Source: a virus (lineage: Duplodnaviria > Caudoviricetes). From it: 52,578 nucleotides of DNA. The notes beneath the pieces were generated by a model. That model searched no databases, was not told the origin of the DNA, and saw only the letters and a list, made by a program, of their open reading frames with translations. The translations under genes were made by a program, and so were the position numbers. The stretch spans positions 1 to 52,578 of IMG/VR virus record IMGVR_UViG_3300022918_000015. One strand, 5' to 3'. Of this stretch, positions 1-47,001 are shown one piece after another (position 1 is the stretch's first letter; each line of letters begins with the position of its first letter).

Positions 1-810
1 CAACAACCAGTTTTAGTTGGTAAGGAAAATAATTTAAATACAAATAATTTTATTAAAACAATTAAAGTGCCTGGATTAAATCAAGACTTCACTATTAATG
101 AAGATAGTATATTTAACTTGTCTAAAATGTATGAGGATTTTGATTCAGCAACTGATAATCTAAACTCAGAAACTATTGATTTGTTTAAAAAAGAATTAGA
201 AGAAGGAAATTTAAGTGAAAATATAAAAATACAAGGAGATGAAACTTTAGTTAGTGAAGAAGACGAATTGAGTGAACAAGAAACTGCCGACGAAGAGGTA
301 AGAAAACTATTGAAATCAATTGGAGGATTAGACAATAAAAAAGCTAATAAGAAAACAACTAATGAAGAACCGCCTGAAATTAAACCTCCAGGAAATAGTC
401 TGGGAGGGTTATTAGCGGGAGATAGTTTTAATCCTGATTACATTCCTGATTATAATCCAAAGCAAAATAAAATACAAAATTTAATGATAGACAATACTGA
501 AGACGAAATGGATGATAGCTCTAGTAATAATTATGTAGAAACTTTATCACATACAGATGAAGACGAAATACTTGATAATAAAAGCATATTAGATTCCAGA
601 TTGAAAAGATATGTTGAAAAACTAGAGTCTGGAAAACTATCTAAGGAAAAAATAAAATCAAGTTTTGACGATTTTAATGCTAACACTTATGAGAAATTAA
701 TACAATTAATAAATATTCTTTATAGTGATAATTTAGATAATGCAAATAAATTTATTACATTTGCAAATAAAATTTACAATAAACCAGAAGATAATAATAA
801 AAACTGTTAA
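1..810 (+). CDS. 3' part of a large virion/ejection protein (5' end outside window)
   Basis: Frame 1 is open from base 1 to TAA at 808-810, so the GTG start at 67 is not the real start. Acidic linker-rich sequence; TAATG overlap with the RNAP gene; the ejection-protein call rests on position. Confidence 0.7.
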   Translation, partial: QQPVLVGKENNLNTNNFIKTIKVPGLNQDFTINEDSIFNLSKMYEDFDSATDNLNSETIDLFKKELEEGNLSENIKIQGDETLVSEEDELSEQETADEEVRKLLKSIGGLDNKKANKKTTNEEPPEIKPPGNSLGGLLAGDSFNPDYIPDYNPKQNKIQNLMIDNTEDEMDDSSSNNYVETLSHTDEDEILDNKSILDSRLKRYVEKLESGKLSKEKIKSSFDDFNANTYEKLIQLINILYSDNLDNANKFITFANKIYNKPEDNNKNC

Positions 811-3800
811 TGGCACAAATACACTGTAAAGGAAGTTTTCCACAAGGAAGATTAGAAATAGACAAAGAATCAATACTACATAGTAAATTATTAGAATTAT
901 TTCCTCAGCAAAATAAAAAAAATAAAGAAGGAGGAAGTATATTATATGATAGTTTATTTTCTGACTCTTTTAAAGTTTTCATTGGAGGAGACTGGACTAA
1001 TAAAGATCCTAAATCTAAAGATTATAAATACTTTGAAGCTAATCCTGGGTTATTAAATACTCAGGATGAGCCAAAGTTAATTTCTATGTCTGGTAGTCAT
1101 TATTTCGTTAATGCAAAGCAAGAAAGATATTTTATTAATCAAAGAACATTATCTGCCACAGATAAGATAGAAACAATTAATTCATTATCTCTTAAATATA
1201 TTCAGAAAACACAAAATGAAAAAGATTCAGTTGAATTAAAAGCATTTGTTATAAAAGAGCTTGAAGAAAGATATGCAACTATGGATAGTGCTTATAATCA
1301 ATTAGAATCTGATTTAGAAGATGAAATAGATGATTTAGAGGAAGATGAAATCTTAATTAGAGAAAATCAATTAAGAGTTCTTAAAAAATCTATGAAATCT
1401 ATTAAAAAAGACATTTTAGATAATAAAAAATCTCTTGACGGAATAATTAAAATTATACAAAACAATTTAAACGATTTTAATTTAAAGTATATAGATGAAG
1501 CTGATGTAAAAGAAGATGATGATGAAATAAATACTAACAGCGAAATAGGTAATTTTACTAAAGAAGGATCTGAAGTGCGAGACACAAATAATATAGACGC
1601 TGAATTAAAATCTATATTAGCTTCTATTCCAGATTACATAGTAGATGTAGATAATACAGAAACGCCTAAAACAAGTAAACTTTTAATGCTTCCTATGGCT
1701 AGACCAGCCAATGAAGTTAAAAACAGAATAGTAGAAACTCTCAGCAATATAATAGAACTTGAATTAACTGAATCTAATTATATTCAAGATCCATATGATT
1801 TGATGATTGCTAAACTTCAAGAAACATCAAATGAAAATGACGATTCTATTTCGAGAGATTTCTTAGCTAAAATAGAAAGAATATATAATTCAAAAAAAAC
1901 TAAGCTAGATAAGGAGGCTTTTAAAACTAAATTTGTAACAAGTTTTTATAAAGCTCAAAATGTATTTACTATAAGTGAAATAAACGAAAAAGACGGTAAA
2001 TTAACTTTACGTCATATTGATCCAGCTAGCTCTCAAGACAAAGAAGCTTTTATTGGTAATGAATTTGTACGCAATATTTTTAACAAATTTGATTATTCTT
2101 CAGATAATATAAAAAACTCAGAAGACTACAAAGAAGCTAGAAAACTATTGGTAAACTTTAAAACTAAAAACGATATAGTAAAAGGACTTGCAAAACTTGA
2201 TATAAATTTAAACTACAAAACAGTAAATCAATTATATAACAATAGAGAAAATGTTTTTTATAAAATAAGATTAGATAAAAACTTGTCATTACAAGACCTA
2301 TTTAAAAGCATTTTTGAGCAAGAAATTAAATTTAATGATAACGAAGCTGCTGATGATAAGAAAGTCTCTTCAAAGGGCTTAAAATCGATTATAGAGGCAT
2401 ATTCTAAAAGCGATAATGGAACACAAAAAAACATAGTAAGAGCATTGCTTGATAAAGATTTATTTACGCCTTTTAATATTATTGCAAAATATGAGGCTAT
2501 AAATAAAACTGATTTAAGTGATAGTAGTTTGTTTGTTGGTAATAAGCAACGCTGGATGTACAGTTTAGTTTCTGGATTAAATAAAGAAATATTAAATTGG
2601 AAATCTGGTAATTTAACTAGTTTAAAAAATAAATCACATAAAAATCTAATATTTGTTGATTATCTTCTAGATTTAGATAATGTCAAAAAAGGACTGTACG
2701 CTGAGAATTCAAATAAAAATATAGCTGAAAGAAATAGGAGAATATCTAACTTAAAATTAATTATAAATTCAGAACTTAAGTCAACAGGAGATGCCAATCC
2801 TATTCAACACAAAGAAATAGGTGAAGCTGATTTAAATATGGATATCTTCTTTAAGATGTTTAATGATAGAGATGAAATATATACTACTCTAGAAAAAAGT
2901 CAGAATTCACAAAAACAAGAGGCTCTTTCAAGTGATATGAAAGTAATATTTCCTTATTTATTTAGTGCTGATAAATCTGGTAGTTACAGTATGAAAGGAT
3001 TTAGTTCTTTTGAAAATTCAGTTATATTAGACTCAAACGATGAATTAACTTCTTTAGGAGAGGGAAATCAAAAAGTAATTAAAAATTATTTACTTGGAGA
3101 ATTTGAAGTACTAAAAAGAAATAGTGATTTAATTCAAGGATATTTAAATAAAACTACAGCTAAGCAAAAGCAAGATTATTTAATGAAGTATCTGATTCCT
3201 GATTTCCATTACGCAACTAAGTTTAAAAACACAAACGGCAACACTTTAACTTATAACGTAGAAAATGATACTATAACGGAAACCGATAAAGATGATAATT
3301 TTATATCAGAGACTAAAGCAAAAGGATTGAATTCTAATTTTATTAATTCTGGTTCTTGGAATCGTTGGGGATTTTTTAATAGCATATATGAAAAAAATAG
3401 ATCCGAATTTGATTTACTATATAAATTTCAAGAAGGAGTTAAATTAGCAGATCCTAGTCAAGAATCTCATATTGAAGATGTATTATTTAAACTAGCTGAA
3501 GAAGAATTTATGGATGTAGCTAGAGAAAATAAATCATATTTTGATTCAATGATCATTGTCGATAAATTTGGAAACAAAAAATCACTATTTGAAGTAGATA
3601 CTAACATAGAAACATCTAGATTAAAAACAACTCCGTATAATTATGCGATTGCAAGTATTTTTAATAATCTTGAAATGTTTAATTTATTTAATGGAGATTT
3701 AGCATTTTATAAACAAAAAGGAGATAAACTCTCTATGGAAGATGCTTTAAAACGTGGTCCTGCAATTCTAACAGATGGTTTATATATACGTCAAGCATCA

Positions 3801-6800
3801 GTTCCTAATAATCAAAAATATACTACTTTTAATAAAGAAATATTAATTGTAGATAAAAATAGATATGCCACAACAGCAGTTTTAAATGTTCTTGAAAATG
3901 ACATTAGTAAATTTGCTGAACAAATAAAAAAAGGAACTGGTAATAATACTTTAAATTATGGACATGAAATAGCAGATGCTCAAGGTTATATTACTCTTGA
4001 TTTCTATAAAAGAATTATATCTGGAACATACGGTTGGTCAAGCAAAGATAACGCTATATTTGAACGATTAAAAGATAAATCACATAAATATACCGATGAG
4101 GATATTAAATGGCTTAAATCGGCTGGTAGAAGCTTACAAGCCCTTAAATTAACTGGATTCAACCTCGAAGATATTCTAGACGAAAAAGATAATGTTATTG
4201 GTCAATTTCCAGTATATTTAAAATACTCAACAGCAGTATTAGCTCCAGCTATTATTGGAGGAACTGATTTAGAGAAATTAGTTAATCAAATGCAGATTCA
4301 AAATGTTGATCAGGTATTGTTTAAGTCAGGCTCTAAAGCATCTAACAAGCCAGCCACCACTATTTTCAATAAAGATGAAAATGGAATATTTACTGGCCTT
4401 AAAGATGATATGAATTTAAATCCATTTTTATTTAATTTATCAGGATTAAAACTACAAGTAGAATTACCAACTAAATTTGATCATGATGGAGTATTAGGTA
4501 ATCAGCATTTAAAAAACTTAATTGCTAATTTAGACTTAACTGATACAACTACTAAATATAAATGGAGAGATCAAGAATTTACAGCTAGTGAATTACAGAA
4601 TGAATATGATAACACCGTTAAAACAAATCTTCAATATCAATTAAATAATTTTATTGAAAAAATACAAATTAAAGATAAAACATTTGACCAAACTAAATTA
4701 AGAGAATTAATAGTAGATCAACTTGATGAAACAGCAGATGAAGATTTAATTGATATTTTACTAGATACAAGTTTACCACTTGAAACTATACCGGGTATAG
4801 CTCAAAGAGCTTTTCCCATTATATCTAGTTATATACATAAACACGTAGGAAAAGTTAGAACTAATGCTGGTTCTGCTATTCAAGTAGCTAATATAGGTTT
4901 TGACAGAATAGATAGTCCAGATGCCAATCAAATAGTATATCTTACAGAAGATAAAGAACTAAGACCTCCATTGTTAGTTACTAATACAGATGGTTCTAAG
5001 TCTATATCTAAAGCAAGAATCATGATGCCTTTTAGTTCTATTTACGAACAAACAGGTATGAGTTACGAAGATTTTAGAAAAGCATTTGCTTCAGGCAAAA
5101 TAGATAAAAGAATATTTGAAAACATTATAGGTTATCGTATTCCAAATCAAAGTATTTCATCTAATGACAGTATTGAAGTAGTTGGAATATTACCTCCAAG
5201 TATGGGAGATACGGCAATTGTGTATCATGAGATTACGGCTAAAACAGGTAGTGACTTTGATATCGATAAGATGTACTTGATGATGCCTAATTTCAAAATA
5301 GAAGAAAATGGTGAAATCAATTATATTGATGATGTTGAAACGCATAAAGGTCAACAGAATAAATTAATAGAATTGATGTCTAGTATTTTAACTAACACTA
5401 AAACATATGACGATTTAATCTCGCCGCTAGATAGCGATATACAAAAAGATGCGATTAATGAAGTCTTATACATTAAATCTATTTTAAATACAGAAGATTT
5501 TGAAGAGGAATTTAATAAATTTAAATCATTAAAAGGAAAATATAAAACTAAGTTTTTAAAATCATTCTCAGAAAAAAGAAAACTAGATCCTATTAGACAA
5601 TTATCACCAATGGGATTAGTTAAATCCAGAGTAGACATGTTGCAAGCTAAAAAACTAGTAGCAACTATGGCAAATCATATGACTGATATTCCTATGAGTC
5701 AAATAACAAATCAAGTATTTAAATATGATCTTAAAATAGATAGTTTTGAATTTAATAAAATGTTTACTTTAGGGCATGAAAATAACAATGAATACAAACT
5801 AACCAAAATAGTCAGTTACTTGATGAATGCTGCGGTGGATGCTGCGAAAGATAATTATATAATTGAGGGTAATTTCAATAGCTATACAGCTAACGGAGCT
5901 ATGCTAATGATTAGACTTGGTATAGAACCGGTAAATGTATTTAAAGTATTACTTAACGATGACGTATTAAAGCTTTCTAAAATGAAACAAATGCAGACTC
6001 AGAAAGTGGCTAGAATACAAGTAGATGATTACAAACAATCTTTACTTAATGAGTATTCAAGAGAATTAGTTAGTAATTTGCAAGAAAACAAAATAAACTT
6101 TAATGATTTCATACAAAAAAATGAAGATTTTAATTCTAAATTAGTATTAGGATTTTGGAATATAATTCAACTTGCAGGTAAAGAATTAAATAATGACATC
6201 GTCAGCTCTAAGAGTGATAGTAATGGAGCTGGTAAGAATATAGCTGAACATTCTACTCTGTATAATAGAATGGAAAGATTGTCTAAAGAATCAATTGGAA
6301 GTAATATAAATGAAAATTTTGTAAGAGGTAGAAAATTATTCAAATCAGGATTAGATTTAAATAATATAGAATTTAGACCTGAAATTACAGATGATATGAC
6401 ATTCTTAGGGGCTATGATGAATAATAGTTTATTCTTGACTAACTTTATAGCTAAAGAAATGTTTGTTGAAGCTACAGATAATTATAGATACATAGTAAAT
6501 AGAATATCAAACCAACTAGGTGAGCCTTTGCCAATTGCTGCTGACAATATAAAGTTAATAAGCAATCATGTCTATCCATATGTAATGTCTCAATCAGGAC
6601 ATGCATTATATAACATAGAAGAAGATCAAGTTGATTATATGACTAAAGAATTTTTATCTGAAGTAATAAGCAAAAAAGCTGCATTTCCAGATAACCTTAT
6701 GTTAAAGCAATTGTACGTAGATGCAAGTACTAATTTAATATCATTTCCAAATTATAAATATTTCGATACTAACTCTAAAATATTACTTAGAGAAGCAATG

Positions 6801-7637
6801 GAAGAGTTATATAATCAAAAAGATTTAAAAGGCAATCCAACGGGAGTAGAATTTATTCATAAACTAGTTCAATATGCCTTTTTAACTACTGGTTTTAAAC
6901 CAACTTATTTTAACATGAATGAGTTTTTACCGAAGAGTTATTTTTTAAATACTGGTCATGGTTATTTTATGAATAATTTGATAAACAGAATGAACGATGG
7001 ATATAGTGAGTTTATAGAAGATGAAAGTATTGAGAAAATGATGACATTCATGAGTATCAACAATGAGTCTAATTATAAAATAGTAGCTAATATAGAGAAA
7101 CCAGAGGGATTAATTTCAAACAAACCTATCACTAATCAGAAAATGGTTGGTAAGGTAACAATAACTGACACTAATAATTTCTATCCATTCTTTAAAAATA
7201 CTGTTTATAAAAATAATAAGATTAAAGAAAATTTATATATGCTAACTAATATATCTGATGAATTAAATGCAAAAAAAGAATTAATCAGGGTTCCTACTTA
7301 TTCTTTAATTAACTCTAATTCAGAAGAAGTGGATACAGAGAGAAACAATAAGTTAAGAAAGAAAACTAAAGTAAAGCTATTTGATTTAAATACAATAAGA
7401 CCAGAAAACTTATTTAGAGGAGAATCTCGAAATAAAAAGCTATATTTGCAATCTGAAATAGAATATACTTCAGAATTGGCTAATATATTTAAAGATAATA
7501 ACTGGACTGTATTAAATGACGATCTAGATTTACAAAAAGCAAAAAATATGCAAGAAGATAATTTCTACGGAAGAACTGAAGAAGAATGGAATGCTCTATC
7601 TAAAAAACAACAAGATAAAATAAAAGAATGTAACTAA
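810..7637 (+). CDS. Virion-packaged single-chain two-barrel RNA polymerase (crAss-like, phi14:2 gp66 type)
   Basis: 2275 aa; catalytic KTGSDFDIDK (DxDxD, nt 5253-5267) preceded by GYRIPNQ; also ADAQGY, LKYS, SGSK and AVDAAKD motifs typical of this family. Confidence 0.9.
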   Translation: MAQIHCKGSFPQGRLEIDKESILHSKLLELFPQQNKKNKEGGSILYDSLFSDSFKVFIGGDWTNKDPKSKDYKYFEANPGLLNTQDEPKLISMSGSHYFVNAKQERYFINQRTLSATDKIETINSLSLKYIQKTQNEKDSVELKAFVIKELEERYATMDSAYNQLESDLEDEIDDLEEDEILIRENQLRVLKKSMKSIKKDILDNKKSLDGIIKIIQNNLNDFNLKYIDEADVKEDDDEINTNSEIGNFTKEGSEVRDTNNIDAELKSILASIPDYIVDVDNTETPKTSKLLMLPMARPANEVKNRIVETLSNIIELELTESNYIQDPYDLMIAKLQETSNENDDSISRDFLAKIERIYNSKKTKLDKEAFKTKFVTSFYKAQNVFTISEINEKDGKLTLRHIDPASSQDKEAFIGNEFVRNIFNKFDYSSDNIKNSEDYKEARKLLVNFKTKNDIVKGLAKLDINLNYKTVNQLYNNRENVFYKIRLDKNLSLQDLFKSIFEQEIKFNDNEAADDKKVSSKGLKSIIEAYSKSDNGTQKNIVRALLDKDLFTPFNIIAKYEAINKTDLSDSSLFVGNKQRWMYSLVSGLNKEILNWKSGNLTSLKNKSHKNLIFVDYLLDLDNVKKGLYAENSNKNIAERNRRISNLKLIINSELKSTGDANPIQHKEIGEADLNMDIFFKMFNDRDEIYTTLEKSQNSQKQEALSSDMKVIFPYLFSADKSGSYSMKGFSSFENSVILDSNDELTSLGEGNQKVIKNYLLGEFEVLKRNSDLIQGYLNKTTAKQKQDYLMKYLIPDFHYATKFKNTNGNTLTYNVENDTITETDKDDNFISETKAKGLNSNFINSGSWNRWGFFNSIYEKNRSEFDLLYKFQEGVKLADPSQESHIEDVLFKLAEEEFMDVARENKSYFDSMIIVDKFGNKKSLFEVDTNIETSRLKTTPYNYAIASIFNNLEMFNLFNGDLAFYKQKGDKLSMEDALKRGPAILTDGLYIRQASVPNNQKYTTFNKEILIVDKNRYATTAVLNVLENDISKFAEQIKKGTGNNTLNYGHEIADAQGYITLDFYKRIISGTYGWSSKDNAIFERLKDKSHKYTDEDIKWLKSAGRSLQALKLTGFNLEDILDEKDNVIGQFPVYLKYSTAVLAPAIIGGTDLEKLVNQMQIQNVDQVLFKSGSKASNKPATTIFNKDENGIFTGLKDDMNLNPFLFNLSGLKLQVELPTKFDHDGVLGNQHLKNLIANLDLTDTTTKYKWRDQEFTASELQNEYDNTVKTNLQYQLNNFIEKIQIKDKTFDQTKLRELIVDQLDETADEDLIDILLDTSLPLETIPGIAQRAFPIISSYIHKHVGKVRTNAGSAIQVANIGFDRIDSPDANQIVYLTEDKELRPPLLVTNTDGSKSISKARIMMPFSSIYEQTGMSYEDFRKAFASGKIDKRIFENIIGYRIPNQSISSNDSIEVVGILPPSMGDTAIVYHEITAKTGSDFDIDKMYLMMPNFKIEENGEINYIDDVETHKGQQNKLIELMSSILTNTKTYDDLISPLDSDIQKDAINEVLYIKSILNTEDFEEEFNKFKSLKGKYKTKFLKSFSEKRKLDPIRQLSPMGLVKSRVDMLQAKKLVATMANHMTDIPMSQITNQVFKYDLKIDSFEFNKMFTLGHENNNEYKLTKIVSYLMNAAVDAAKDNYIIEGNFNSYTANGAMLMIRLGIEPVNVFKVLLNDDVLKLSKMKQMQTQKVARIQVDDYKQSLLNEYSRELVSNLQENKINFNDFIQKNEDFNSKLVLGFWNIIQLAGKELNNDIVSSKSDSNGAGKNIAEHSTLYNRMERLSKESIGSNINENFVRGRKLFKSGLDLNNIEFRPEITDDMTFLGAMMNNSLFLTNFIAKEMFVEATDNYRYIVNRISNQLGEPLPIAADNIKLISNHVYPYVMSQSGHALYNIEEDQVDYMTKEFLSEVISKKAAFPDNLMLKQLYVDASTNLISFPNYKYFDTNSKILLREAMEELYNQKDLKGNPTGVEFIHKLVQYAFLTTGFKPTYFNMNEFLPKSYFLNTGHGYFMNNLINRMNDGYSEFIEDESIEKMMTFMSINNESNYKIVANIEKPEGLISNKPITNQKMVGKVTITDTNNFYPFFKNTVYKNNKIKENLYMLTNISDELNAKKELIRVPTYSLINSNSEEVDTERNNKLRKKTKVKLFDLNTIRPENLFRGESRNKKLYLQSEIEYTSELANIFKDNNWTVLNDDLDLQKAKNMQEDNFYGRTEEEWNALSKKQQDKIKECN

Positions 7638-10600
7638 TGGCAGGAACATGTGTAAATAAATCAAGTGCTGAATTCATAGCATTAAAAGAACAAACAGGAA
7701 TAGATGAAGTTTTATTGGCAGCAAATGTTAGTATTTGGCAAGACGAAAACGGAATAGATAAATTTCCTACAGAAGAAGAGTTAAATAGTTTTTCTACAGA
7801 AGATGAAATATTATTCAATCAATATACTTCTACAGAAGATGCTATACAAAAATTCTATTCAACTAAAAGCGATAATAATACTTTATCTAGAAAACTTAAT
7901 TTAAATCTATCTGACAGAAGTGAAGATAGTATTAATATTACAGAACGCAAAATAGAAATATTAAAACAATCTTTAAATGCTGAGGTTTTAATAGATGCCA
8001 GTATTCCAGATTCAGGTCAGTTATTACCGGCTAATCATCCATTATCAAAAAGATATGGAAAACCTGTTATTGTAATAAATCCAAACAAGCTATTTTCAGA
8101 CACTGTAATTCACGAATTTGGACATTTGTATATTGACTTACTTAAAGAAGACGATGGTGTCTTAAATCAAGCGTATGGCTTGCTACGCAACACCGAATTC
8201 TACAGTAATATAGCAGCAGAATATCCAGAGTTAAGTTTAGTTGATTTAGATAAAGAGGTGTTAGCTACTGCAATAGGAATTGAGGGAGATAGAATATTTA
8301 ATAGAGATTTGCAGGATTTGTCTAATTGGCAAAAATTGAAAAACTGGATTTTAAATAAACTATCTTCTATATTCTCTGTTCAACCAAATGCTATTGAAAA
8401 ACTAGCAACTGAATTGCTTTCAAATCAAGTTAGAGTTTCCGGTGTTGAAAATTATAATACCATTATTACTCAAAGATCTAAATATAAAATAGATTCTGCT
8501 AGTTCTAATAAACAGCAAGATGTATTAGATTTATTTAAAAAATTAACTAAAGATTTTACAAAACAAACTGTTGATAATGAAAATATCTATATTGACAAAG
8601 AAGGAAATATTCACAATAATTCAGTAACCAAGAATATTAAACAATATCAAAGACGTTTTAACTCAAAAGATAAGGGTGATTATGAAATGGTATTTGACAG
8701 AACCTTATTTAATGTAGATAACATTGAATTTCAGTTAAATCAACCTAGAGTTCCAATGGCATTAACACGTGCGTTGAATGACTTTATGAATGAAAGAATA
8801 GTTTCTATTAGTTTTACTAAAGATGTTTCTGATAAAAACTGGTACGATGCTTATACAAGAGAAATTATAGAAGATGCAACTGGTGAAGTAGATGAAGTTC
8901 AACAAATGGAAGCTAATTTACTTTCTTCTCAAACAGGAGGAGCTATAACATTTAAAGCTAATATATTAAAACATTTAGATTTAATTTTAAATAGAGCTGA
9001 AGAATATCAGTTATCAGCTAATCAAAGACCTATTGTTGGACAGATAATTCACAATGCTTTAGAGAATTACATTAACGAAGAAACTCCATTTCCAAGCAAT
9101 ATATCAGATGAAGATAATGCATTATTAAATTCTATTAAAAATATAATAGATACAGGTATAGCTAATGGTAGTAGATTTGTTACTGAACAAATATTATATT
9201 CAGAAAATAAACAGATTCCAGGAACAGCAGATTTAATTGAAATAACAAAATCTGGTGAAGCTATTATTTATGATTTCAAAACAGTTAATAGTTTCTCAGG
9301 AAAAGATAAAGGAAATGAATATGAGAAAAAACCTCAATCACTTTATTTTGATAAAGGCTATATTCATCAACTACTTTCTTATGGAGCTATATTAAATCAA
9401 TACGATATTAATCTGGCAGATGATCCATATCATATTTTAATGGCTGAAGTTAAGTACTCTAACATAGAAGATTTAGATTCTACTATAACAATAGGTGAAG
9501 TTAGAAATACTTCAATGAGTTCTAAAGAATTATTACCTTTATTAAACTCAGCTAAAACAGCTATATTTAATGAATTTGCAACTAGTTCAGAACTAGAACA
9601 TATTAATATTAAGCCAGATATTCAGAATTTAAATGACTTATCTGAAAAAATTAATAGTGTTATTTCTATATATAAAAGACGAACTAGAAATATAGCAAGT
9701 AATCTTGACACGAGAGACATTGATCAAATACAAAAAGATTTAATTAAAAATCAAGATATAGAAGCAGATATTAATAAATACATTGCAAAAAATAACGAAG
9801 TAATTATTAACTCTTATGTAGATAACTTGTACAATTCATTATCTATTTTAGAACAACAAAAAGAATATATAGGAGAAGTTCCTACACCTGAATTTTTACA
9901 AAGCTTAAATTATGTATTACAATCTACTGAAGCTTTAGAAGATATAAAGAAAATACTTAGTGAAAATATTCCTTTTGAAGATAAAGATAAGTTATTAAAA
10001 ACCATAAATAAAACATTAAAAATAGTTGAAGAAAACAAAAAATACTATAAACAAAAACTACAACGTTTATCTATATCTCAACTTACTGAGAATAGTAATT
10101 TAATGCAAGGGTTATATGCTGAAAAATATCAAAGAGAAGCTAAAAAATTAGGAAAGAAAACTAAAGAAGAAATAACACTATATATAGAGCAAGAGTTAAA
10201 GAAAAATGAAACCATAATAAAAGTAAAAGAAATTCAATATTGGACCAAACAATATGAGGACGGATTTGCTGACTTAAGATTTCTTGAATACTTAATAGCG
10301 GATCCAGGTATGTCTAAATCTCAATTCGTTCAGTTAACTAAAAATATTTTAGATAAAGCAGATCAATCTACCAGAAATAAAATGATGGATGTTATTCCAG
10401 ATATAGCAAACTGGTACAATAATATTTCTTACGAAAAAACTGGAGATCCAAGAAAAGTGTGGGATAGGTTTCTAGAGAAAAATGCTAAAAACGACAATAA
10501 ACCAACAGGAGCGGTTATACCTGAATTTACAAGTAAATTTAGAGAAATGTTTCTTCAATATAGTTATCAATTAAAAGCACTATATAGAGAACTTAATAAA

Positions 10601-12874
10601 TTAAAAAATGCTCCTAAAACAGAATCTAATCAAAAATTAATTGAAGCTAAAAACGAACAAATTAAAGTATTAAAAAAAGAAAGACAGAAAACTATAAAAG
10701 AAAGAACCAGAGATGAAGATGATTTCAGAGATAGTTATATTCATCCTGATTTTGATAAATTAAACGATAAAGAAAAGGAAGATTTAAGATTTATACATAA
10801 AAATCTAACTGATGCAGATAATAGATTATATACAATACCTGAAAAGAAATTAACTCAAGAACTTGAAGACGGAACAATAATTTATAATCTTCCGAAAGAT
10901 AGAATGAGTGGTATTGAAGCAACTTATAAAGCAGGAGGAATTATTGGTACATTTAAGTCTAAGTTTGAAGACTTATTAAGACCGCCAGCAGATGAAGATA
11001 GTGAAAATATAACTAACCAAGAATATGGTTCAGAAAGTAAATTCGGAACTAATGAATTGGATGGATATGGGAATGAAGTATTTTCAGTTCCTGTTTACTA
11101 TAGAAATGATTTAGAAAATGATGAATTACAATCCTATGATATTCCTAGCTTACTAGCAATGAATCACGATACCACTATCACTTATGAAGAAAACAAACTA
11201 GTTGAAGCAGATTTATTTGTTATTGCAGAAAGTTTAAGTTCTAAAAACAATGACAAAATACTTAAAACAGATAGCTTTATTAACAGAAAAATACAAAACG
11301 CTGTTGGAAATAACTTTCAAAAATCTGATCAAAACTTAGTTTATCAAGCTGTAAAATCAAGTATAGATAACAGACTGTATAAACGTGCTTATAATGGAGT
11401 TTATTCAAAACAAAACTACCAGTTAATTAAAGGAGCTGAAGCAGTAAGTAAATATGCAAGTACTCTAGTTCTAGCTGGAAACTTTATGTCTGCTTTGTCT
11501 ACATTTACTCAAGGTAGTATTTATAGATTATTAGAGGCAAGTGTTGGAGAACATTTTACAATTACTGATTGGCAAAATGGAACTAAAAAAGCTTGGTTAG
11601 ATTTTCCAAACATGTTAAAAGATTCTCAAAAATATACTCCCGAAAGCAAAAGTGCATTATTGATTAAGAAATTTGGACTTGAAACACAATCACATGCTTT
11701 GACTAATAAATTTGTTCAGGATAATTTTGTAAAAAAACAATTAGACTCAGGTACTTTATTTTCAGTTACAAGTATGGCAGAAGCGGTTGTTACAAGTAAC
11801 TTGATGTACTCATTATTAAGCAACGTAAAGGTCACAAATGATAAAGGCGAATATATTAATCAAGAGGGAGAGAAAGTGTCTAAAAACGATGCTATGAGCC
11901 TTGACGAAGCATATACCGTAGTAGATGGTAAACTTGAATTAAATAAATTTGTAAAATACACAAGTTTTAATATTACAAGCAAATATAATGACGGTCAAAA
12001 TAAAGATAATACAATTGCAGCTACTGAGATATCAAGATACATAAGAAGCGTCTATGCTGATTTATATGGTCAATATAATCAAGATATGAAATCTGTTATG
12101 CAAAGAAATATTGCCGGTAAATTAATAATGAGTTTGAGGGGATGGTTGCCAAGAGGGGTTAACAGACGTTGGAGAGGTATTACGGATGCTATTGGTAAAG
12201 ATTTCATGAGTTTTGATGAATTAAGAGATGAAGCTAATATAGATAAAAGATTTTATTCTCAAGATCAAAAACAATTTCAAGAAGGACATTATACTACTAC
12301 TATTAGATTTATAAAGAGTTTAAGAAAACTAATGAAACAAAATCAAGAAGGATTATCTGCAAATAGAAAAACCTTAAGAGAATCTATGACAGATCATGAA
12401 ATAGCTAACTTAAAACGTACTCAGTACGAAATGGCTACGATGTTAATAATGATGGCTATGGCTATGTTGCTACGCACTATAGCAATGAGTTCTGAAGGAG
12501 ATGACAAGGATAAAGAAAAAATATATTTTGCAGCTTATTTAGCTTATAGAGTCCAAACAGAATTATCTACGTTTATATCACCTCCTGCTATGATGGAAAT
12601 GTTAACTAATCCAGCAGCAAGTATAAGTGTAGTGCAAAGAGTATTTGATTGGATGTGGCAATTAACTGGAGTAGCTTATTCTAAAGAAGAAGGTTGGGGA
12701 GTTAACATAAATGATGTTTATGATAAAGGAGATAAACAAGATGAAAGCAAAGCTTTACTTAAATCATATGGATTAGTTCCCTTTTATGTTAAAACAAACC
12801 AAATGAAAAGTATTCTAGGATTAGAAAGTAAAAATCCGATATCAGATTCATTTCAATACTCAATAAGTAAATAA
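7637..12874 (+). CDS. Large virion/ejection protein with zincin-like HExxH domain and PD-(D/E)xK nuclease domain
   Basis: 1745 aa; VIHEFGH (nt 8111-8125) with downstream KEVLA; IIHNALE...EQ...GTADLI...IYDFKT...QLLSY; hydrophobic helix near the C-terminus; TAATG coupling to the RNAP gene. Confidence 0.8.
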   Translation: MAGTCVNKSSAEFIALKEQTGIDEVLLAANVSIWQDENGIDKFPTEEELNSFSTEDEILFNQYTSTEDAIQKFYSTKSDNNTLSRKLNLNLSDRSEDSINITERKIEILKQSLNAEVLIDASIPDSGQLLPANHPLSKRYGKPVIVINPNKLFSDTVIHEFGHLYIDLLKEDDGVLNQAYGLLRNTEFYSNIAAEYPELSLVDLDKEVLATAIGIEGDRIFNRDLQDLSNWQKLKNWILNKLSSIFSVQPNAIEKLATELLSNQVRVSGVENYNTIITQRSKYKIDSASSNKQQDVLDLFKKLTKDFTKQTVDNENIYIDKEGNIHNNSVTKNIKQYQRRFNSKDKGDYEMVFDRTLFNVDNIEFQLNQPRVPMALTRALNDFMNERIVSISFTKDVSDKNWYDAYTREIIEDATGEVDEVQQMEANLLSSQTGGAITFKANILKHLDLILNRAEEYQLSANQRPIVGQIIHNALENYINEETPFPSNISDEDNALLNSIKNIIDTGIANGSRFVTEQILYSENKQIPGTADLIEITKSGEAIIYDFKTVNSFSGKDKGNEYEKKPQSLYFDKGYIHQLLSYGAILNQYDINLADDPYHILMAEVKYSNIEDLDSTITIGEVRNTSMSSKELLPLLNSAKTAIFNEFATSSELEHINIKPDIQNLNDLSEKINSVISIYKRRTRNIASNLDTRDIDQIQKDLIKNQDIEADINKYIAKNNEVIINSYVDNLYNSLSILEQQKEYIGEVPTPEFLQSLNYVLQSTEALEDIKKILSENIPFEDKDKLLKTINKTLKIVEENKKYYKQKLQRLSISQLTENSNLMQGLYAEKYQREAKKLGKKTKEEITLYIEQELKKNETIIKVKEIQYWTKQYEDGFADLRFLEYLIADPGMSKSQFVQLTKNILDKADQSTRNKMMDVIPDIANWYNNISYEKTGDPRKVWDRFLEKNAKNDNKPTGAVIPEFTSKFREMFLQYSYQLKALYRELNKLKNAPKTESNQKLIEAKNEQIKVLKKERQKTIKERTRDEDDFRDSYIHPDFDKLNDKEKEDLRFIHKNLTDADNRLYTIPEKKLTQELEDGTIIYNLPKDRMSGIEATYKAGGIIGTFKSKFEDLLRPPADEDSENITNQEYGSESKFGTNELDGYGNEVFSVPVYYRNDLENDELQSYDIPSLLAMNHDTTITYEENKLVEADLFVIAESLSSKNNDKILKTDSFINRKIQNAVGNNFQKSDQNLVYQAVKSSIDNRLYKRAYNGVYSKQNYQLIKGAEAVSKYASTLVLAGNFMSALSTFTQGSIYRLLEASVGEHFTITDWQNGTKKAWLDFPNMLKDSQKYTPESKSALLIKKFGLETQSHALTNKFVQDNFVKKQLDSGTLFSVTSMAEAVVTSNLMYSLLSNVKVTNDKGEYINQEGEKVSKNDAMSLDEAYTVVDGKLELNKFVKYTSFNITSKYNDGQNKDNTIAATEISRYIRSVYADLYGQYNQDMKSVMQRNIAGKLIMSLRGWLPRGVNRRWRGITDAIGKDFMSFDELRDEANIDKRFYSQDQKQFQEGHYTTTIRFIKSLRKLMKQNQEGLSANRKTLRESMTDHEIANLKRTQYEMATMLIMMAMAMLLRTIAMSSEGDDKDKEKIYFAAYLAYRVQTELSTFISPPAMMEMLTNPAASISVVQRVFDWMWQLTGVAYSKEEGWGVNINDVYDKGDKQDESKALLKSYGLVPFYVKTNQMKSILGLESKNPISDSFQYSISK

Positions 12875-14259: not shown

Positions 14260-14632
14260 CTTTATTTACTATATATTTTTCAAAATCTTCAAATGATAAT
14301 AATTCATAATTAGGATCTATATCATTATATCCAATATACTCATCTGAGCCACTCCTAATGTGTAAATGATGACTTGAGGCGAAATCGTGTTCCCAGTGAT
14401 GATTAAAGAATTTTTTATGATTTTTCATAAATTTAAAAATCTCCAGCATTTCATATTCATCATAAGTTTTATTTAAATAATAATTTTTATTATAATCAAA
14501 TTCTTTTTTAAAATCTTCTTTTTTAATTAAAGAAATAGAACTAAAATCTAACTTATCTAAATCAGACATTTCATCGTATTTTTCTTGAAGAGTCTTTAAT
14601 ATTTTGCCTAAACTTTCTTTGTTTATATACAT
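14249..14632 (-). CDS. Hypothetical protein, paralog family A
   Basis: Start moved to MYINKESL (just after the ligase stop, aligns with paralogs); C-terminal YELLSFEDFEKYIV. Confidence 0.65.
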   Translation of the reverse strand: MYINKESLGKILKTLQEKYDEMSDLDKLDFSSISLIKKEDFKKEFDYNKNYYLNKTYDEYEMLEIFKFMKNHKKFFNHHWEHDFASSHHLHIRSGSDEYIGYNDIDPNYELLSFEDFEKYIVNKDED

Positions 14633-14633
14633 T

Positions 14634-15782
14634 TTAACGGTCTTCATGAATACCAACCATTACTGGAAATCTAGGAATACCAGTATTGCTTAATTCAAAA
14701 TACCTGATATTAGCTGTTTTTCCAATATATTGATCAGCATTTATTAATAATTCTTTTCTTGATTCATGTGACATTTTAGTTCCACATGCAAATTGTTTAC
14801 CACTCCACTCTACAACAGGTCTTCCCCATTCTGGTCTTTTTTCGGCAGGTCCAATAGAAATTATTTTACAATCAATATCTAAAAAATCTTTATATTTTAA
14901 TAAGTCAGAACTTCTTCCATTTACTTTATATAATCCAGAACCTCTACGAATCATAGTGCCTTCATAACCCATTGCAAGATAAGCTTCATGAGCTGATTTA
15001 AGCATGTTTTCTGACGTTATCTGATAATCCTTAATAAACTCTAAAGATTCTAATTTTAAGCCCTTAGAAAGCCCTGAAATGTATTGTAAACCTAATCTAC
15101 GATTTTCCCACATTTCTCCAGGATTAATTTTATCGTAAATATTAAATTGAATACGTTCTGTAAGTCCTTTTCTATATTTTTTAATAAACTCCATATTAGT
15201 TTGAAAATCTTCACCATGAACATATAGTTCTCCATCTAAAATATGAGGGAAAGTTTTATTATTTAAATATGGAATTAATCTCATTAAATCAATTTCGATA
15301 TGCATCATATTTGAGATTATTTTGCCGTCACGAGATACCAATTTAATTTCAGGAACTCCATAATTATTAATTGTAATATGAGCAAGACATCTCATTCCGT
15401 CTAATTTAGGCTGAACAAATAATTGACAATTAAATATATCGTCATAATCTAATTTATGTTTTTCATCTTTATAAGATTTAGCTAACATAGGTAATATTAC
15501 TTCTTCAGTTTCAGCTTCTTCAATAGTTTCAAAATAACCTTTAGTTAATTTATCTTTTATTAAAGCTTCAAGTTCAATAATAGATTGTTGAGCCAGACTA
15601 GTTTCGTTTTTCTTACCTATATTTTTTTGTTTACAAATCTTAGTATGAATTATTGGATTTTTACTTTCAACTATACCGGAAGTTTGAGTTAATATTCCGT
15701 CTTCAGGAAAATTACTTTCTACTTTTAAAAATCTAATTTTTCCCTTTGTATCTTTTTTATAAATTGTTTTACTGTAACTCAT
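14634..15782 (-). CDS. lig: ATP-dependent DNA ligase
   Basis: PMLA, QPKLDGMR (motif I), LDGELY, EGTMIR, LLKYK and PRFP motifs. Confidence 0.93.
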   Translation of the reverse strand: MSYSKTIYKKDTKGKIRFLKVESNFPEDGILTQTSGIVESKNPIIHTKICKQKNIGKKNETSLAQQSIIELEALIKDKLTKGYFETIEEAETEEVILPMLAKSYKDEKHKLDYDDIFNCQLFVQPKLDGMRCLAHITINNYGVPEIKLVSRDGKIISNMMHIEIDLMRLIPYLNNKTFPHILDGELYVHGEDFQTNMEFIKKYRKGLTERIQFNIYDKINPGEMWENRRLGLQYISGLSKGLKLESLEFIKDYQITSENMLKSAHEAYLAMGYEGTMIRRGSGLYKVNGRSSDLLKYKDFLDIDCKIISIGPAEKRPEWGRPVVEWSGKQFACGTKMSHESRKELLINADQYIGKTANIRYFELSNTGIPRFPVMVGIHEDR

Positions 15783-16020: not shown

Positions 16021-16376
16021 TTTGCCATATTTAATTCTGAAGATAATATTGCATTCACAATAAAACTTTCGTTAATCTTCATTTTCGTTCGATGTAATAC
16101 TTTTGGAATATTTAAACATCTTTTGAAATACTCTTCGTTATTACTCATTTTAGCCATTTTAAGCATGTTTTTAGGAACTATTATGCCATTTCCACTAGAA
16201 TGTGTAATACAATAATAAACGCCTCTAAAACATATCCCTAAATGGCTAAATTTATCTCCTTCTCCAAAACAATTAGAGAAAAGAGATAATGTTAACCATC
16301 TGGGGAATTTCTGCTTTTTTTTACGATTAGGATTTTTCAGGTTCTCCATTTGATTCTTCTGCTTTCGGTTCTTCAA
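16017..16376 (-). CDS. Hypothetical protein (start uncertain, possibly 16349)
   Basis: ORF in tiled - strand array. Confidence 0.55.
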   Translation of the reverse strand: MKNRKQKNQMENLKNPNRKKKQKFPRWLTLSLFSNCFGEGDKFSHLGICFRGVYYCITHSSGNGIIVPKNMLKMAKMSNNEEYFKRCLNIPKVLHRTKMKINESFIVNAILSSELNMAK

Positions 16377-16593
16377 ATTGAGACATTACAAATTCTTTTA
16401 ATTCTTCTTTAGTTTGAAAAACATCGGTTGAATTAAGTTTTGTTGTTTGACTCTTTGAATTCTTTAAAGAATATGATACTTCAGCTTTATCTGTAATGTT
16501 TATATAAACATCCTGTACAGTATATTCTTCTATTTTGTTTAGAAACATACAAAATACTGTTGTTCCTTTTTTATGATAATCTACGTTTAACAT
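16327..16593 (-). CDS. Hypothetical phage protein
   Basis: 88 aa; VFQTKEELKE C-terminal motif common in small phage proteins. Confidence 0.65.
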   Translation of the reverse strand: MLNVDYHKKGTTVFCMFLNKIEEYTVQDVYINITDKAEVSYSLKNSKSQTTKLNSTDVFQTKEELKEFVMSQFEEPKAEESNGEPEKS

Positions 16594-17072
16594 GTTTCTA
16601 AAGTTATTTTTATTTCGTTAATATTTTCTTTTTTAAATAATTCAGTTATTTTATAATAATTAATATTTATTTTCTCTATTTTATGAAAAAAACTTAAATC
16701 GAAAAAAGTATTGTTTTGTTCTCTCCATCCATAAGTATTAACATTTGTTATATAAGAATAATCATAAAATTTGTTTTTTACAAACCAATCTTTTGTAATT
16801 TTAATATAGATTAATTCATGCAAAAAAATAAATTCTTCTCCATCATCATCGTTTTTCAAATGCCTACACTCAATATATGCTATATCATCTAAAAAATAAT
16901 GAAATTCTTTATCAATATGAAGATTTTTTACTTTTATTCCATTATTATAAATATTGTTTTTTCTTTCATAATATTGATATTTTCTAGACAAAGCTCTTTC
17001 GCTCGGAACATAATCGTTATTATTTCTAAACAAATTACTTCTTAATAAATCCTTCTTGTTATTGTATTTCAT
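16587..17072 (-). CDS. Hypothetical protein
   Basis: 161-aa tiled ORF. Confidence 0.65.
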   Translation of the reverse strand: MKYNNKKDLLRSNLFRNNNDYVPSERALSRKYQYYERKNNIYNNGIKVKNLHIDKEFHYFLDDIAYIECRHLKNDDDGEEFIFLHELIYIKITKDWFVKNKFYDYSYITNVNTYGWREQNNTFFDLSFFHKIEKININYYKITELFKKENINEIKITLETC

Positions 17073-18426: not shown

Positions 18427-18816
18427 TTACCACAACTGATTTTTGACTTTATAAGCATATAACACTTCTAAATCTGTTTTAATATCTTCTAAATTAGTTT
18501 CTTCACTAAATAGTTTACGTAATATCTCTAATTCATCATAAGTTAAAGCATCAGATTCCTCATAAATATCTTTAAATAATCCTCTTTTAATTCTTCTGGA
18601 GTTTTTGCCTTTTGATTTATAGTAAATATAATTGCAATTGCAAGCTATACGGTCTATTGCGTCCGCATCACGTAATGCAGCTGAATTGGGATTTTCTCTA
18701 GGATTAAAAACTGTATCTAGAATACTTAATATATCATAGATCTCAAGCCTTAATAAAAAGTTTACATTTATATGTCGATCTGATAATATTTTTTTTAATA
18801 ATTGTTTATTCGTCAT
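18427..18816 (-). CDS. Hypothetical protein
   Basis: 129-aa ORF. Confidence 0.65.
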   Translation of the reverse strand: MTNKQLLKKILSDRHINVNFLLRLEIYDILSILDTVFNPRENPNSAALRDADAIDRIACNCNYIYYKSKGKNSRRIKRGLFKDIYEESDALTYDELEILRKLFSEETNLEDIKTDLEVLYAYKVKNQLW

Positions 18817-18832
18817 TATTTATTATCTATTA

Positions 18833-18907
18833 AAATAATAAGAGAAGATTTCACATGTGCTGACACTTATTTCCGCAGACAACTAGTTAATTTCTTCTCT
18901 ATTATTT
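18833..18907. ncRNA. Stem-bracketed intergenic element (candidate structured RNA or processing site)
   Basis: AAATAAT-A-AGAGAAGA pairs with TCTTCTCT-ATTATTT around a 44-nt, relatively GC-rich core. Confidence 0.45.
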
Positions 18908-19337
18908 ATGCATTTTGTTTACCTTTAATCTTTATAAGATTTGTAACTTCATTTATAAATCCATCTATATTCTTGTCAGTCTGTCTATCGTACGAGATAG
19001 ATTCACACGCATACTTAACGATGCCAAGTTTTTTATTGAAGAATTTACAAAGATCATTCATTGACATTTTAATTGTTTTTCTATTACTAGAAAAAAGAAA
19101 AAAGCAAATATATCTTGGTATTATCAAACTTCTTTTTCTAGATGAACTAAGTAACTCTTTTTTAGAAACATTAAATTCATCACACACTTTATCTATTATT
19201 AAATCTTGATAAGATTTATTTATATCTAAATGAGCATTAAATACAATCTTAGAAACTAATGTTCTAAACTCTCTATTATTTATTAGTATTTCCGCCTGAT
19301 CTTCAGTTAGTTCAAAGTTATTATCTACAGTATTCAT
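18906..19337 (-). CDS. DnaA C-terminal (domain IV)-like HTH protein
   Basis: IIDKVCDEFNVSKKELLSSSRKRSLIIPRYICFFL matches the DnaA domain IV pattern; no AAA+ domain. Confidence 0.7.
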   Translation of the reverse strand: MNTVDNNFELTEDQAEILINNREFRTLVSKIVFNAHLDINKSYQDLIIDKVCDEFNVSKKELLSSSRKRSLIIPRYICFFLFSSNRKTIKMSMNDLCKFFNKKLGIVKYACESISYDRQTDKNIDGFINEVTNLIKIKGKQNA

Positions 19338-44887: not shown

Positions 44888-45163
44888 TTATAATTTATAA
44901 TGTAATTTATTATTGATAAAATAATTATAATTATCTAATAGAAATCTTTTTCTACATTTAACAGTAGTAGCTTTATAATTTCCAAGATACCAATTACCAT
45001 TTTTATCTAGAATAGCTTTGCTTACATGGTTAAAACATAAATTATTATTAAATATATAAAAATCTTTTTCATTAAAATAAGAAGATTCTCTAAATTTAAA
45101 ATTATGTTCTTTATGATGTAAATAATATAATACTAATCCTGTTATAATAATAAATATATACAT
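44888..45163 (-). CDS. Small protein with N-terminal TM
   Basis: 91 aa; TAATG coupling to the OmpA-fusion gene. Confidence 0.55.
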   Translation of the reverse strand: MYIFIIITGLVLYYLHHKEHNFKFRESSYFNEKDFYIFNNNLCFNHVSKAILDKNGNWYLGNYKATTVKCRKRFLLDNYNYFINNKLHYKL

Positions 45164-47001
45164 TATTTTAAAAGAGTTACTTGAACCCTTCTGTTTTTAT
45201 ACCTACCTTCAGCTGTATTATTATTGCCAATAGGTTTTTTATCTCCCAATCCTTCTACAGATTCAACTGCTTGGAATGGTAAACCTTGATTTTGCAAATA
45301 CTCTAGTACAGCGTTAGCTCTAGATTTAGATAAAATTTGATTTTGATCAGGATTACCGGTATTATCAGTATGGCCTTCAATAATGATTTTAGTTCCCTCA
45401 GCTTGAACAATTAAATTGTATAATTCTTTAAGTTGTTTATCGCTTGAATGCAATATCTCCGAACTACCTGAATTAAAATTGATTTGCCAGCTTCCAGATG
45501 CCATTACAGACGTTAACTTTTTAGAATAGTCTACTTGTTTCACTTCACCTGAATTAATACCTGAAATCGCTTGTAATGACGTCAAATCAACTGCTTTATC
45601 ATAAGGAGTAACTTTTTTAACAGCATCACTGAATCCATTTGGATTAAGATCTGTCAAATAATTAGCAACTTGTTCATAAACAGATTTGTATCTATTAATT
45701 CCATCATCACCTAATCCATAATATTGCAAAGCATCTGCATGATTCATAATTCTAGTACCACCAGCAATTTGACCATTACTTAAAGTTTTACCTTTAAACA
45801 TTTCATACCAATATTGAGGAGATTGATAACCGTAAGTTTTAGCAACACATTGTGAAGCTTTAACTCTCCAATCATCATATAACTTCATTTGATTAGCAGC
45901 AGTATAAGTAGCTTTCAAAATATTAACAACCACGTCTGGGTTAGCATCAGACCATTCTTTTAAGACTATTAAAGTTGTAGTCATTTGATTAGGAAAATCT
46001 TTAGTAGAAGATATAGTTACTGCGTGAGGAACTTTATCAAATATCATTTTATCTCCAGGCAACCAAGTACTACATAAATCAATTTTTCTAGATACAGTCT
46101 TACCTGTTGGCTTACCATCTTTAAGTTCTTTCATGTCATAAACCTTTCCATTTAATTGAGATGCAATATAATCATTTGCACATTCAATAATATTTGGATT
46201 ATGAATAAAGTTTACAGCTTCTGGATCATACGTACCGATGTTTGGATTTACTTTAATACCTTTATTAGCAAATATATAATTCAATGCTACAACCCAGTCA
46301 CCGTCTCCTACAGCAGTTACGATAACAGCTCCTTTAAGATTAGCCGGATTATCAATATATTTTTTATCTCCAATAAGTTTATCTTCTCCATAACTAGCTC
46401 CATAACAAGCCTTAACTACAGCGTGATATTTATCTTCACCAAATTTATCGTCAAGCATTTTATTTAATGTTGATATAAAATAAGGAGCGCCATCACCCAT
46501 AATACTTACTCCGAATGCACTAGTATTGCTTTGTGGATTTAAATTCCCTGAATCAAATTCAGCAGTAAAATTAACCATAGCAGCTTGTAATAGACTAAAA
46601 TCATCCTGACGTCCTATATTAAGATTTACACCATATTTTTCCATTAAACTATTTTCAGAAGTTTGAGGACCGCCATTAGCTACAATCATAGTACTATTAC
46701 CATTCCAAGTATACTCAAGTAAATTATACTTAGTTTTACTTTTTACTTTAGTTGATAAACTGTTTCCTGGCAAATCGATTTTATCTGCTTTAGAAGCGTT
46801 ATCAATTACGGTTCCATCAATTTCCAAATCATTACCTGTAGTAGATTTTAGAAAGTTCATTCCGGGGGCAAAAAAGGCTACTGCTAAATAAGCTATAACG
46901 ATAATAGCTATTACACCCAATACTTTAAGTGTATTACGACCTTTGGGAGTTAGGTTATCCCACCAACTTGTTTTTGTTTGATTTTGATTAAAATTTTCCA
47001 T
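45163..47001 (-). CDS. Membrane-anchored substrate-binding-like protein fused to an OmpA-like peptidoglycan-binding domain
   Basis: N-terminal TM; central region resembling TauA/NMT1-type binding proteins; C-terminal INFNSGS...IEGHTDNTG...NQILSKSRA...NRRVQV. Confidence 0.85.
   Translation of the reverse strand: MENFNQNQTKTSWWDNLTPKGRNTLKVLGVIAIIVIAYLAVAFFAPGMNFLKSTTGNDLEIDGTVIDNASKADKIDLPGNSLSTKVKSKTKYNLLEYTWNGNSTMIVANGGPQTSENSLMEKYGVNLNIGRQDDFSLLQAAMVNFTAEFDSGNLNPQSNTSAFGVSIMGDGAPYFISTLNKMLDDKFGEDKYHAVVKACYGASYGEDKLIGDKKYIDNPANLKGAVIVTAVGDGDWVVALNYIFANKGIKVNPNIGTYDPEAVNFIHNPNIIECANDYIASQLNGKVYDMKELKDGKPTGKTVSRKIDLCSTWLPGDKMIFDKVPHAVTISSTKDFPNQMTTTLIVLKEWSDANPDVVVNILKATYTAANQMKLYDDWRVKASQCVAKTYGYQSPQYWYEMFKGKTLSNGQIAGGTRIMNHADALQYYGLGDDGINRYKSVYEQVANYLTDLNPNGFSDAVKKVTPYDKAVDLTSLQAISGINSGEVKQVDYSKKLTSVMASGSWQINFNSGSSEILHSSDKQLKELYNLIVQAEGTKIIIEGHTDNTGNPDQNQILSKSRANAVLEYLQNQGLPFQAVESVEGLGDKKPIGNNNTAEGRYKNRRVQVTLLK

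Follow-up and report, generated by a model that had tools for sequence, protein, structure and literature searches.

Junction-facing terminal cysteines in the giant cargo proteins of crAss-like phages suggest a head-to-tail disulfide chain that includes the virion RNA polymerase

The three giant genes at the start of the IMG/VR virus record IMGVR_UViG_3300022918_000015 encode proteins that are almost devoid of cysteine (Cys), except for single residues at the termini that face each other. The stretch of DNA analyzed here, called the window, is this whole record of 52,578 nucleotides (nt), a 52.6-kb fragment of a crAss-like phage genome; with an estimated completeness of 37%, it leaves the 5' remainder of the first gene outside the data. 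We designate the three proteins p1, p2 and p3 in gene order, p2 being the predicted virion RNA polymerase. The most likely mechanism behind the pattern, to which we assign a probability of roughly 0.7, is a head-to-tail disulfide chain, p1-S-S-polymerase-S-S-p3. Such a 1-2-3 pairing of terminal cysteines had been proposed in an earlier note made from the letters of the window. It is now backed by the sequence pattern, which is conserved and covaries with the fusion and fission of the genes, and by a precedent in phage A4; the bond itself we infer.

The three genes are consecutive open reading frames (ORFs) on the plus strand. The features of the window on which the argument builds are the following (aa, amino acids; PDB, Protein Data Bank).

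Positions 1 to 810, plus strand: 3' part of the giant p1 gene, open at its 5' end, 269 aa visible; positional counterpart of g067 of Cellulophaga phage phi14:2 and of gp47 of crAss001.
Positions 808 to 812, plus strand: TAATG stop/start overlap of the p1 and polymerase genes, seen in the sequence.
Positions 810 to 7637, plus strand: predicted virion RNA polymerase (p2), 2275 aa, with a match to PDB entry 6VR4 (E 4e-68) and a DFDID motif.
Positions 7560 to 7634, plus strand: C-terminal tail of the polymerase, its last ~25 aa, acidic, helix-like and ending in Cys-Asn, from a 21-row tail alignment.
Positions 7635 to 7639, plus strand: TAATG stop/start overlap of the polymerase and p3 genes, seen in the sequence.
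Positions 7637 to 12874, plus strand: giant protein p3, 1745 aa; positional counterpart of phi14:2 g065 and crAss001 gp49.
Positions 7649 to 7786, plus strand: conserved N-terminal module of p3, residues ~5-50, from a 21-row alignment and an AlphaFold2 (AF2) model.

The visible part of p1 has one cysteine, which is its last residue (269; TGT at 805-807). The polymerase has only Cys6 (825-827) and the penultimate residue Cys2274 (7629-7631), and p3 has only Cys5 (7649-7651), a C-terminal cysteine being absent. Thus, the giants contain 4 Cys in 4289 aa (0.09%), every one at most six residues from an end that faces the neighboring protein. The 59 minus-strand ORFs of at least 80 aa contain 122 Cys in 11,046 aa (1.10%). 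At this background rate, about 47 Cys would be expected in the giants, and the probability of finding four or fewer is 5e-16. That four randomly placed cysteines would all fall within the 24 junction-facing terminal positions has a probability of about 8e-10, a post-hoc figure. The earlier note had listed the four cysteines with their codons and both TAATG overlaps, had pointed out that p3, the last in the series, ends without a cysteine, and had stated that neighboring small proteins use cysteine freely; every coordinate and all of these statements proved correct.

The nearest relative among the loci that we fetched, L003 (77% identity over the polymerase core), has a full-length p1 of 1940 aa, and its sole cysteine is again the last residue. 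The last 84 aa of p1 in the window are 56% identical to the C-terminus of this protein (E 6e-23), while the preceding 185 residues of the visible fragment have no significant match. Because only these last 84 residues are conserved with L003, the C-terminal tail module is the constrained part of p1.

Sequence comparisons identify p2 as a putative crAss-like virion RNA polymerase of the phi14:2 gp66 family. In a phmmer search, residues 939-1571 aligned with residues 871-1461 of PDB 6VR4, which is gp66 of phi14:2 (E 4.3e-68), and tblastn gave 31% identity to phi14:2 (E 9e-58), with 135 phage records matched, mostly crAss-like. The DFDID sequence at residue 1482 (nt 5253-5267) conforms to the catalytic motif DFDxD, and the block surrounding it is invariant in the polymerase alignment. 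In addition, the gene stands at the end of the structural block with a co-oriented giant gene on either side, a layout common to phi14:2 and related loci. Searches of Pfam and PHROGs returned no family for p1, p2 or p3, and p3 had no match among PDB sequences. Cargo proteins of phi14:2 (10.1101/2020.03.07.982082) and crAss001 (PMC10172136) have been found in particles; here and below, statements on cited papers refer to the parts of their text that we consulted. By analogy with phi14:2 and crAss001, the only phages for which this is known, the polymerase of the window would be packaged and delivered to the host.

These two phages carry the true counterparts of the system, with the same three-protein set and the same pattern of terminal cysteines. 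In phi14:2, the sole cysteine of g067 (1797 aa) is its last residue, g066 (2180 aa) has Cys3 and Cys2179, and g065 (1421 aa) has Cys3 only. The cysteines in crAss001 are Cys2339 of gp47 (2341 aa), Cys5, Cys1334 and Cys2404 of gp50 (2412 aa), and Cys5, the only one, of gp49 (1349 aa); crAss001 differs in that gp47 is inverted relative to gp50 and gp49.

To extend the comparison, 85 IMG/VR loci with a polymerase core were fetched, a second scan covering the best 80 of 464 relatives. Clustering of 87 loci at 90% identity gave 70 clusters, the representatives of which were used for the junction count; ten loci with only TAG as in-frame stops were translated with table 15. Cysteines were present within 10 residues of the terminus on both sides at 94 of 102 junctions between consecutive chain members. 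This count was made after 11 ORFs had been dropped: the ferritin-like ORFs of L004, L017, L038, L046 and L074 and the GIY-YIG ORF of L003, all domain-tested; four ORFs dropped without a domain check (167 aa in L011, 69 aa in L057, 153 aa in L052 and 151 aa in L062); and a 243-aa ORF of L046 that had no Pfam match. Of 217 other ORFs of these loci, taken as a control, 7.4% have a cysteine among the first 10 residues and 8.3% among the last 10, rates from which 0.6 double-sided junctions would be expected by chance. The chain members have 0.086% Cys overall, and internal cysteines are absent in 47 of the 70 chains. The outer ends of the chains follow the same rule: only 2 of 49 outer starts carry a cysteine, both of them polymerases at a contig edge, and only 4 of 65 outer ends, two of which are followed by another member. 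In 45 of 46 cases, the ORF that immediately precedes the chain lacks cysteine; since it carries no terminal cysteine, the chain starts at p1. The terminal-cysteine pattern is an order-wide rule and not a quirk of the window; polymerase-core identities reach down to 24%.

Might the pattern be a by-product, with cysteine purged from ejected proteins and the terminal residues being tolerated leftovers or signals for translational coupling? Ejected proteins of Schitoviridae have been documented to be depleted of cysteine (PMC11445570), and both junctions of the window are TAATG overlaps. We nevertheless consider this explanation highly improbable, given the excess of double-sided junctions over the chance expectation and the persistence of the pattern at such low polymerase identities. 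It also persists in other gene arrangements: gp47 of crAss001 is encoded on the strand opposite to gp50 and gp49, ferritin-like or GIY-YIG genes lie between partners in several loci, and the gaps between partner genes range from -13 to 1212 nt. Moreover, the junction cysteines use both codons (TGT 169, TGC 19), and their positions shift from -1 to -7 at the C-terminal and from 2 to 7 at the N-terminal ends. These observations rule out a nucleotide-level cause, and the junction counts together with the strand and gap data led us to reject the leftover and nucleotide-signal explanations.

Further support for a chain comes from gene fusion and fission. The earlier note had proposed tabulating cysteines in orthologs including split and fused variants, and this table speaks strongly in favor of its idea. 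An N-terminal cysteine is present on the polymerase ORF in 41 of 41 cases with p1 and polymerase split and in 0 of 20 with the two fused, and the fused protein usually lacks internal cysteines too. Likewise, the polymerase ORF carries a C-terminal cysteine in 55 of 57 cases in which it is split from p3 and in 1 of 9 in which the two are fused, the exception (L024) having a further downstream split with its own pair. Fusions of all three proteins with zero Cys occur in L066 (5642 aa), L083 (4730 aa), L007, L008, L064 and L051. At the other extreme, extra pieces in L030 (1167 aa) and in L068 and L071 (~170 aa) have one cysteine per end. On a tree of the polymerase core, which left out one of the 70 representatives with a core stretch below 350 aa, there are at least 8 switches between split and fused at junction 1 (p1/polymerase) and at least 5 at junction 2 (polymerase/p3).

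These architectures also bear on which cysteines would pair. In principle, each protein could form homodimers through the same cysteine, or the polymerase could be closed by a bond between its two ends, with p1 bonded to p3. Each protein is presumed to be packed in several copies per particle, and gp57 of crAss001 makes a 47-47 disulfide (PMC10172136), which would be compatible with such schemes. In partly fused forms, however, the remaining two cysteines always face each other at the surviving junction, and one-sided junctions are rare (5 of 102). Because of this, pairing of a C-terminal end with the next N-terminal end fits the data, whereas homotypic pairing or self-closure of the polymerase does not. 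The near-absence of cysteines from outer ends, the extra pieces with one cysteine per end and the bond of A4, which joins two different neighboring proteins, likewise make other pairings improbable. Among the possible orders, only 1-2-3 agrees with the partly fused architectures.

Some further observations concern the junctions of individual loci. Split points inside one clade could not be mapped by BLASTP, the junction regions being too diverged to align. The natural fusion in L040 is collinear with the polymerase and p3 of L014, with a junction stretch of 129 aa compared with 126 aa and no Cys; it was considered as a stand-in for a docked junction and dropped, as its sequence is unlike the tail and head modules of its relatives. 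A stretch of ~200 aa is shared by the polymerases of L056 (residues 521-719) and L067 (residues 2195-2376) at 51% identity (E 2e-51). It lies near the N-terminal end in the former and near the C-terminal end in the latter; the domain has evidently moved within the chain.

A structural precedent for the proposed bond exists in cyanopodophage A4, also named Anabaena phage A-4L. In its pre-ejectosome, as resolved by cryo-electron microscopy, gp27 inserts its C-terminal helix into gp26, and Cys1715 of gp27 is disulfide-bonded to Cys5 of gp26 (PMC12002296, PNAS 2025). In the A-4L record (KF356198), these are the only cysteines of gp27 (1717 aa) and gp26 (1114 aa), respectively. Both are internal ejection proteins encoded by adjacent genes. 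As in the window, an upstream giant has a cysteine close to its end, in A4 three residues from it, and the next protein one close to its start, in A4 at position 5, both being otherwise Cys-free in A4; conversely, the window carries the A4 signature of a single near-terminal cysteine per facing end in otherwise Cys-free proteins. No homology to A4 was detectable by BLASTP, with E values of 0.19 for p3 of the window against gp26 and 0.021 for phi14:2 g067 against gp27. A4 also differs in being a member of the Saffermanviridae with a cyanobacterial host, in having a single link and not a series, and in having no RNA polymerase in the chain. Its authors describe a stabilizing bond in one structure, not a rule (PMC12002296). 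The crAss-like link, with its predicted bond, thus works like gp27-gp26 but lies outside that family.

In the 21-row alignment of polymerase tails, the cysteine is the only invariant column. In the corresponding alignment of p3 heads, two residues, Cys5 and L16, never vary and two more, N7 and P44, hardly do, within a module of ~45 aa. An AF2 model of p3 residues 1-110 had a mean predicted local distance difference test (pLDDT) score of 68.5, with values above 90 only in blocks within residues 11-50, and contained two short helices; a Foldseek search of this model against the PDB gave no match at E 0.001 or better. By eye, head types found at junction 1 in some phages recur at junction 2 in others. 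A predicted complex of the polymerase tail (residues 31-80 in the tail alignment) with the p3 head (residues 1-60 in the head alignment) scored 0.28, 0.31 and 0.28 against a mark of 0.32, in runs made without controls, and weighs neither for nor against binding. The earlier note had suggested that short flanking helices act as docking modules; of this, the conserved ~45-aa module after p3 Cys5 has emerged, with sequence conservation as its only support.

Accordingly, we weighed the possibility that the terminal cysteines belong to non-covalent docking modules, or that a metal ion is bridged between neighbors, with no disulfide formed. The conserved module after the N-terminal cysteine of p3 and the acidic tail before the C-terminal cysteine of the polymerase are in line with docking, as are the head types, which seem, by eye, to go with particular tail types. 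On the other hand, the cysteine is the sole invariant residue of the tail and one of two invariant residues of the head, which argues for thiol chemistry. A metal site is further disfavored by the single cysteine per side and the lack of a conserved His or Asp partner, and the only solved case with such a signature, A4, is a disulfide. Taken together, docking or metal binding alone is unlikely, although less so than an alternative pairing.

N4-like phages offer a second comparison, their polymerase being of a type that we take to be unrelated to that of crAss-like phages. In N4 (gp50) and DEV (gp71, gp72 and gp73), a giant particle-borne RNA polymerase and Cys-suppressed ejected neighbors are found as well, and the explanation cited is passage through the periplasm, where disulfide-forming enzymes act (PMC11445570). 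The N4-like proteins differ in that cysteine is wholly absent, and no terminal pairs are reported in the consulted parts of that paper. The giants of the window do not share this whole-protein absence of cysteine as seen in Schitoviridae: internal cysteines are zero, and the four terminal ones are kept.

For the preferred disulfide chain, we envisage the following course. Two disulfides would form in the assembled particle, one between the C-terminal cysteine of p1 and polymerase Cys6, the other between polymerase Cys2274 and Cys5 of p3. The product would be a 1:1:1 thread of more than 4300 residues here and ~5400 in phi14:2, and it would be topologically linear because each cysteine lies within a few residues of a chain end. 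Purging of internal cysteines would ensure that neither loops nor branches form. The thread could pass the narrow tail channel partly unfolded, as a single polypeptide would, and reduction of the bonds in the host cytoplasm would free the polymerase. The bond, its timing, threading and release, and a role in stoichiometry and ejection order are all steps that we infer. In crAss001, gp47, gp49 and gp50 lie in the capsid cargo zone, their extrusion in partly unfolded form has been proposed, and the order of extrusion probably depends on protein packing and interaction (PMC10172136). Particles of crAss001 do have intersubunit disulfides, in the tail and in gp57; the consulted text of that paper describes disulfides for the tail, the hubs and gp57 alone and contains no match for "cysteine". 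The consulted text of the phi14:2 preprint (10.1101/2020.03.07.982082) has no match for cysteine or Cys.

Several observations weigh against a disulfide chain or limit its support. For every crAss-like phage, the bond is deduced from sequence alone. Oxidation of the cysteines would have to take place in spite of a reducing host cytoplasm and an anoxic gut. The strict phylogenetic test is underpowered: at junction 1, all five independent pairs on well-supported branches agree (p 0.0625, the best attainable with five pairs), and junction 2 offers only two independent pairs. If no ORF is dropped, both-sided cysteines fall to 88 of 113 junctions. Among the exceptions to the 102 junctions, the p1 cysteines of L021 and L038 lie 32 and 18 residues from the end, and the polymerase of L010 keeps its C-terminal cysteine while the next ORF is Cys-rich and has none at its N-terminus. 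The polymerases of L016 and L023 are split without cysteines and have a different downstream protein set. Gut lineages, including TAG-recoded ones, hold 2 to 26 internal cysteines yet keep the junction pairs, and this tolerance weakens the view that any internal cysteine is harmful. Finally, fused forms are assumed in the phi14:2 preprint to be cut into their components (10.1101/2020.03.07.982082); in that case, the chain would not need to be continuous.

Two of these groups show features of their own. In L016 (11900-12040), the polymerase ORF ends with TAATAA after an A-rich lysine run, 119 residues past the catalytic motif. The next ORF begins 57 nt on, with no Cys on either side, and this second piece has a 2OG-Fe(II) oxygenase domain (PF13532, E 8e-13). 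The break is either a true Cys-less split or an assembly indel. The ten TAG-recoded loci (L048, L053-L055, L061, L075-L078 and L080) contain between 1 and 7 TAG codons in frame in the polymerase core, TAG being the only stop there; reading TAG as Gln gives fused proteins of 4400 to 4590 aa in which internal cysteines are tolerated.

Genes inserted in or near the chain deserve separate mention. In all six cases tested, ferritin-like ORFs of ~165 aa (PF00210, E 7e-14 to 3e-20) lie between or directly after the giant cargo genes:

L004, positions 16219-16722: ferritin-like ORF (PF00210).
L017, positions 14758-15255: ferritin-like ORF (PF00210).
L046, positions 8327-8821: ferritin-like ORF (PF00210).
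L074, positions 14285-14776: ferritin-like ORF (PF00210).
L038, positions 6015-6509: ferritin-like ORF (PF00210).
L047, positions 18636-19130: ferritin-like ORF (PF00210).

The window has no such ORF. As a guess, these proteins may be tied to iron or redox handling of the cargo. In L003 (14395-15156), a 253-aa GIY-YIG ORF (PF01541, E 3e-8) lies between the polymerase and p3, and its last six residues equal the polymerase tail with one change, as if a homing endonuclease gene had copied the 3' terminus of the polymerase gene.

Products of the opposite strand of the window include a DNA ligase, a DnaG-type zinc ribbon protein and a MoxR-type AAA protein. A minus-strand ORF at 51507-52415 carries both DUF4832 and a C-terminal sorting domain of type IX secretion (PF18962; 26.6 bits, marginally short of the 27-bit cut-off), and a 611-aa ORF at 45163-47001, also on the minus strand, has a terminal OmpA domain (PF00691, E 4e-21). 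The PF18962-like and OmpA ORFs hint at a Bacteroidota host.

Extended to the whole order, the particle cargo including the polymerase might be one covalent, topologically linear thread of 5000 to 7000 residues, made either from one gene or from two to four products joined end to end by disulfides. Fission would be tolerated where a cognate pair of tail and head connectors with one cysteine each restores continuity. Injection would deliver the thread as a unit, and reduction in the cytoplasm would cut it. We hold the chances of this broader view to be evenly balanced. Terminal-cysteine linkage in crAss-like phages appears to be unpublished, as our literature searches found no paper on terminal cysteines in crAss cargo proteins.

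In crAss-like phages, three giant proteins have to be packed in several copies each, and a functional RNA polymerase has to travel through a narrow tail. If true, a disulfide thread would explain a fixed stoichiometry, a fixed order of exit and the freedom with which these genes fuse and split in evolution. It would also act as a redox switch, keeping the polymerase inactive until it is inside the cell. For annotators, facing terminal cysteines would provide a simple rule for deciding which neighboring giant ORFs belong to the cargo set.

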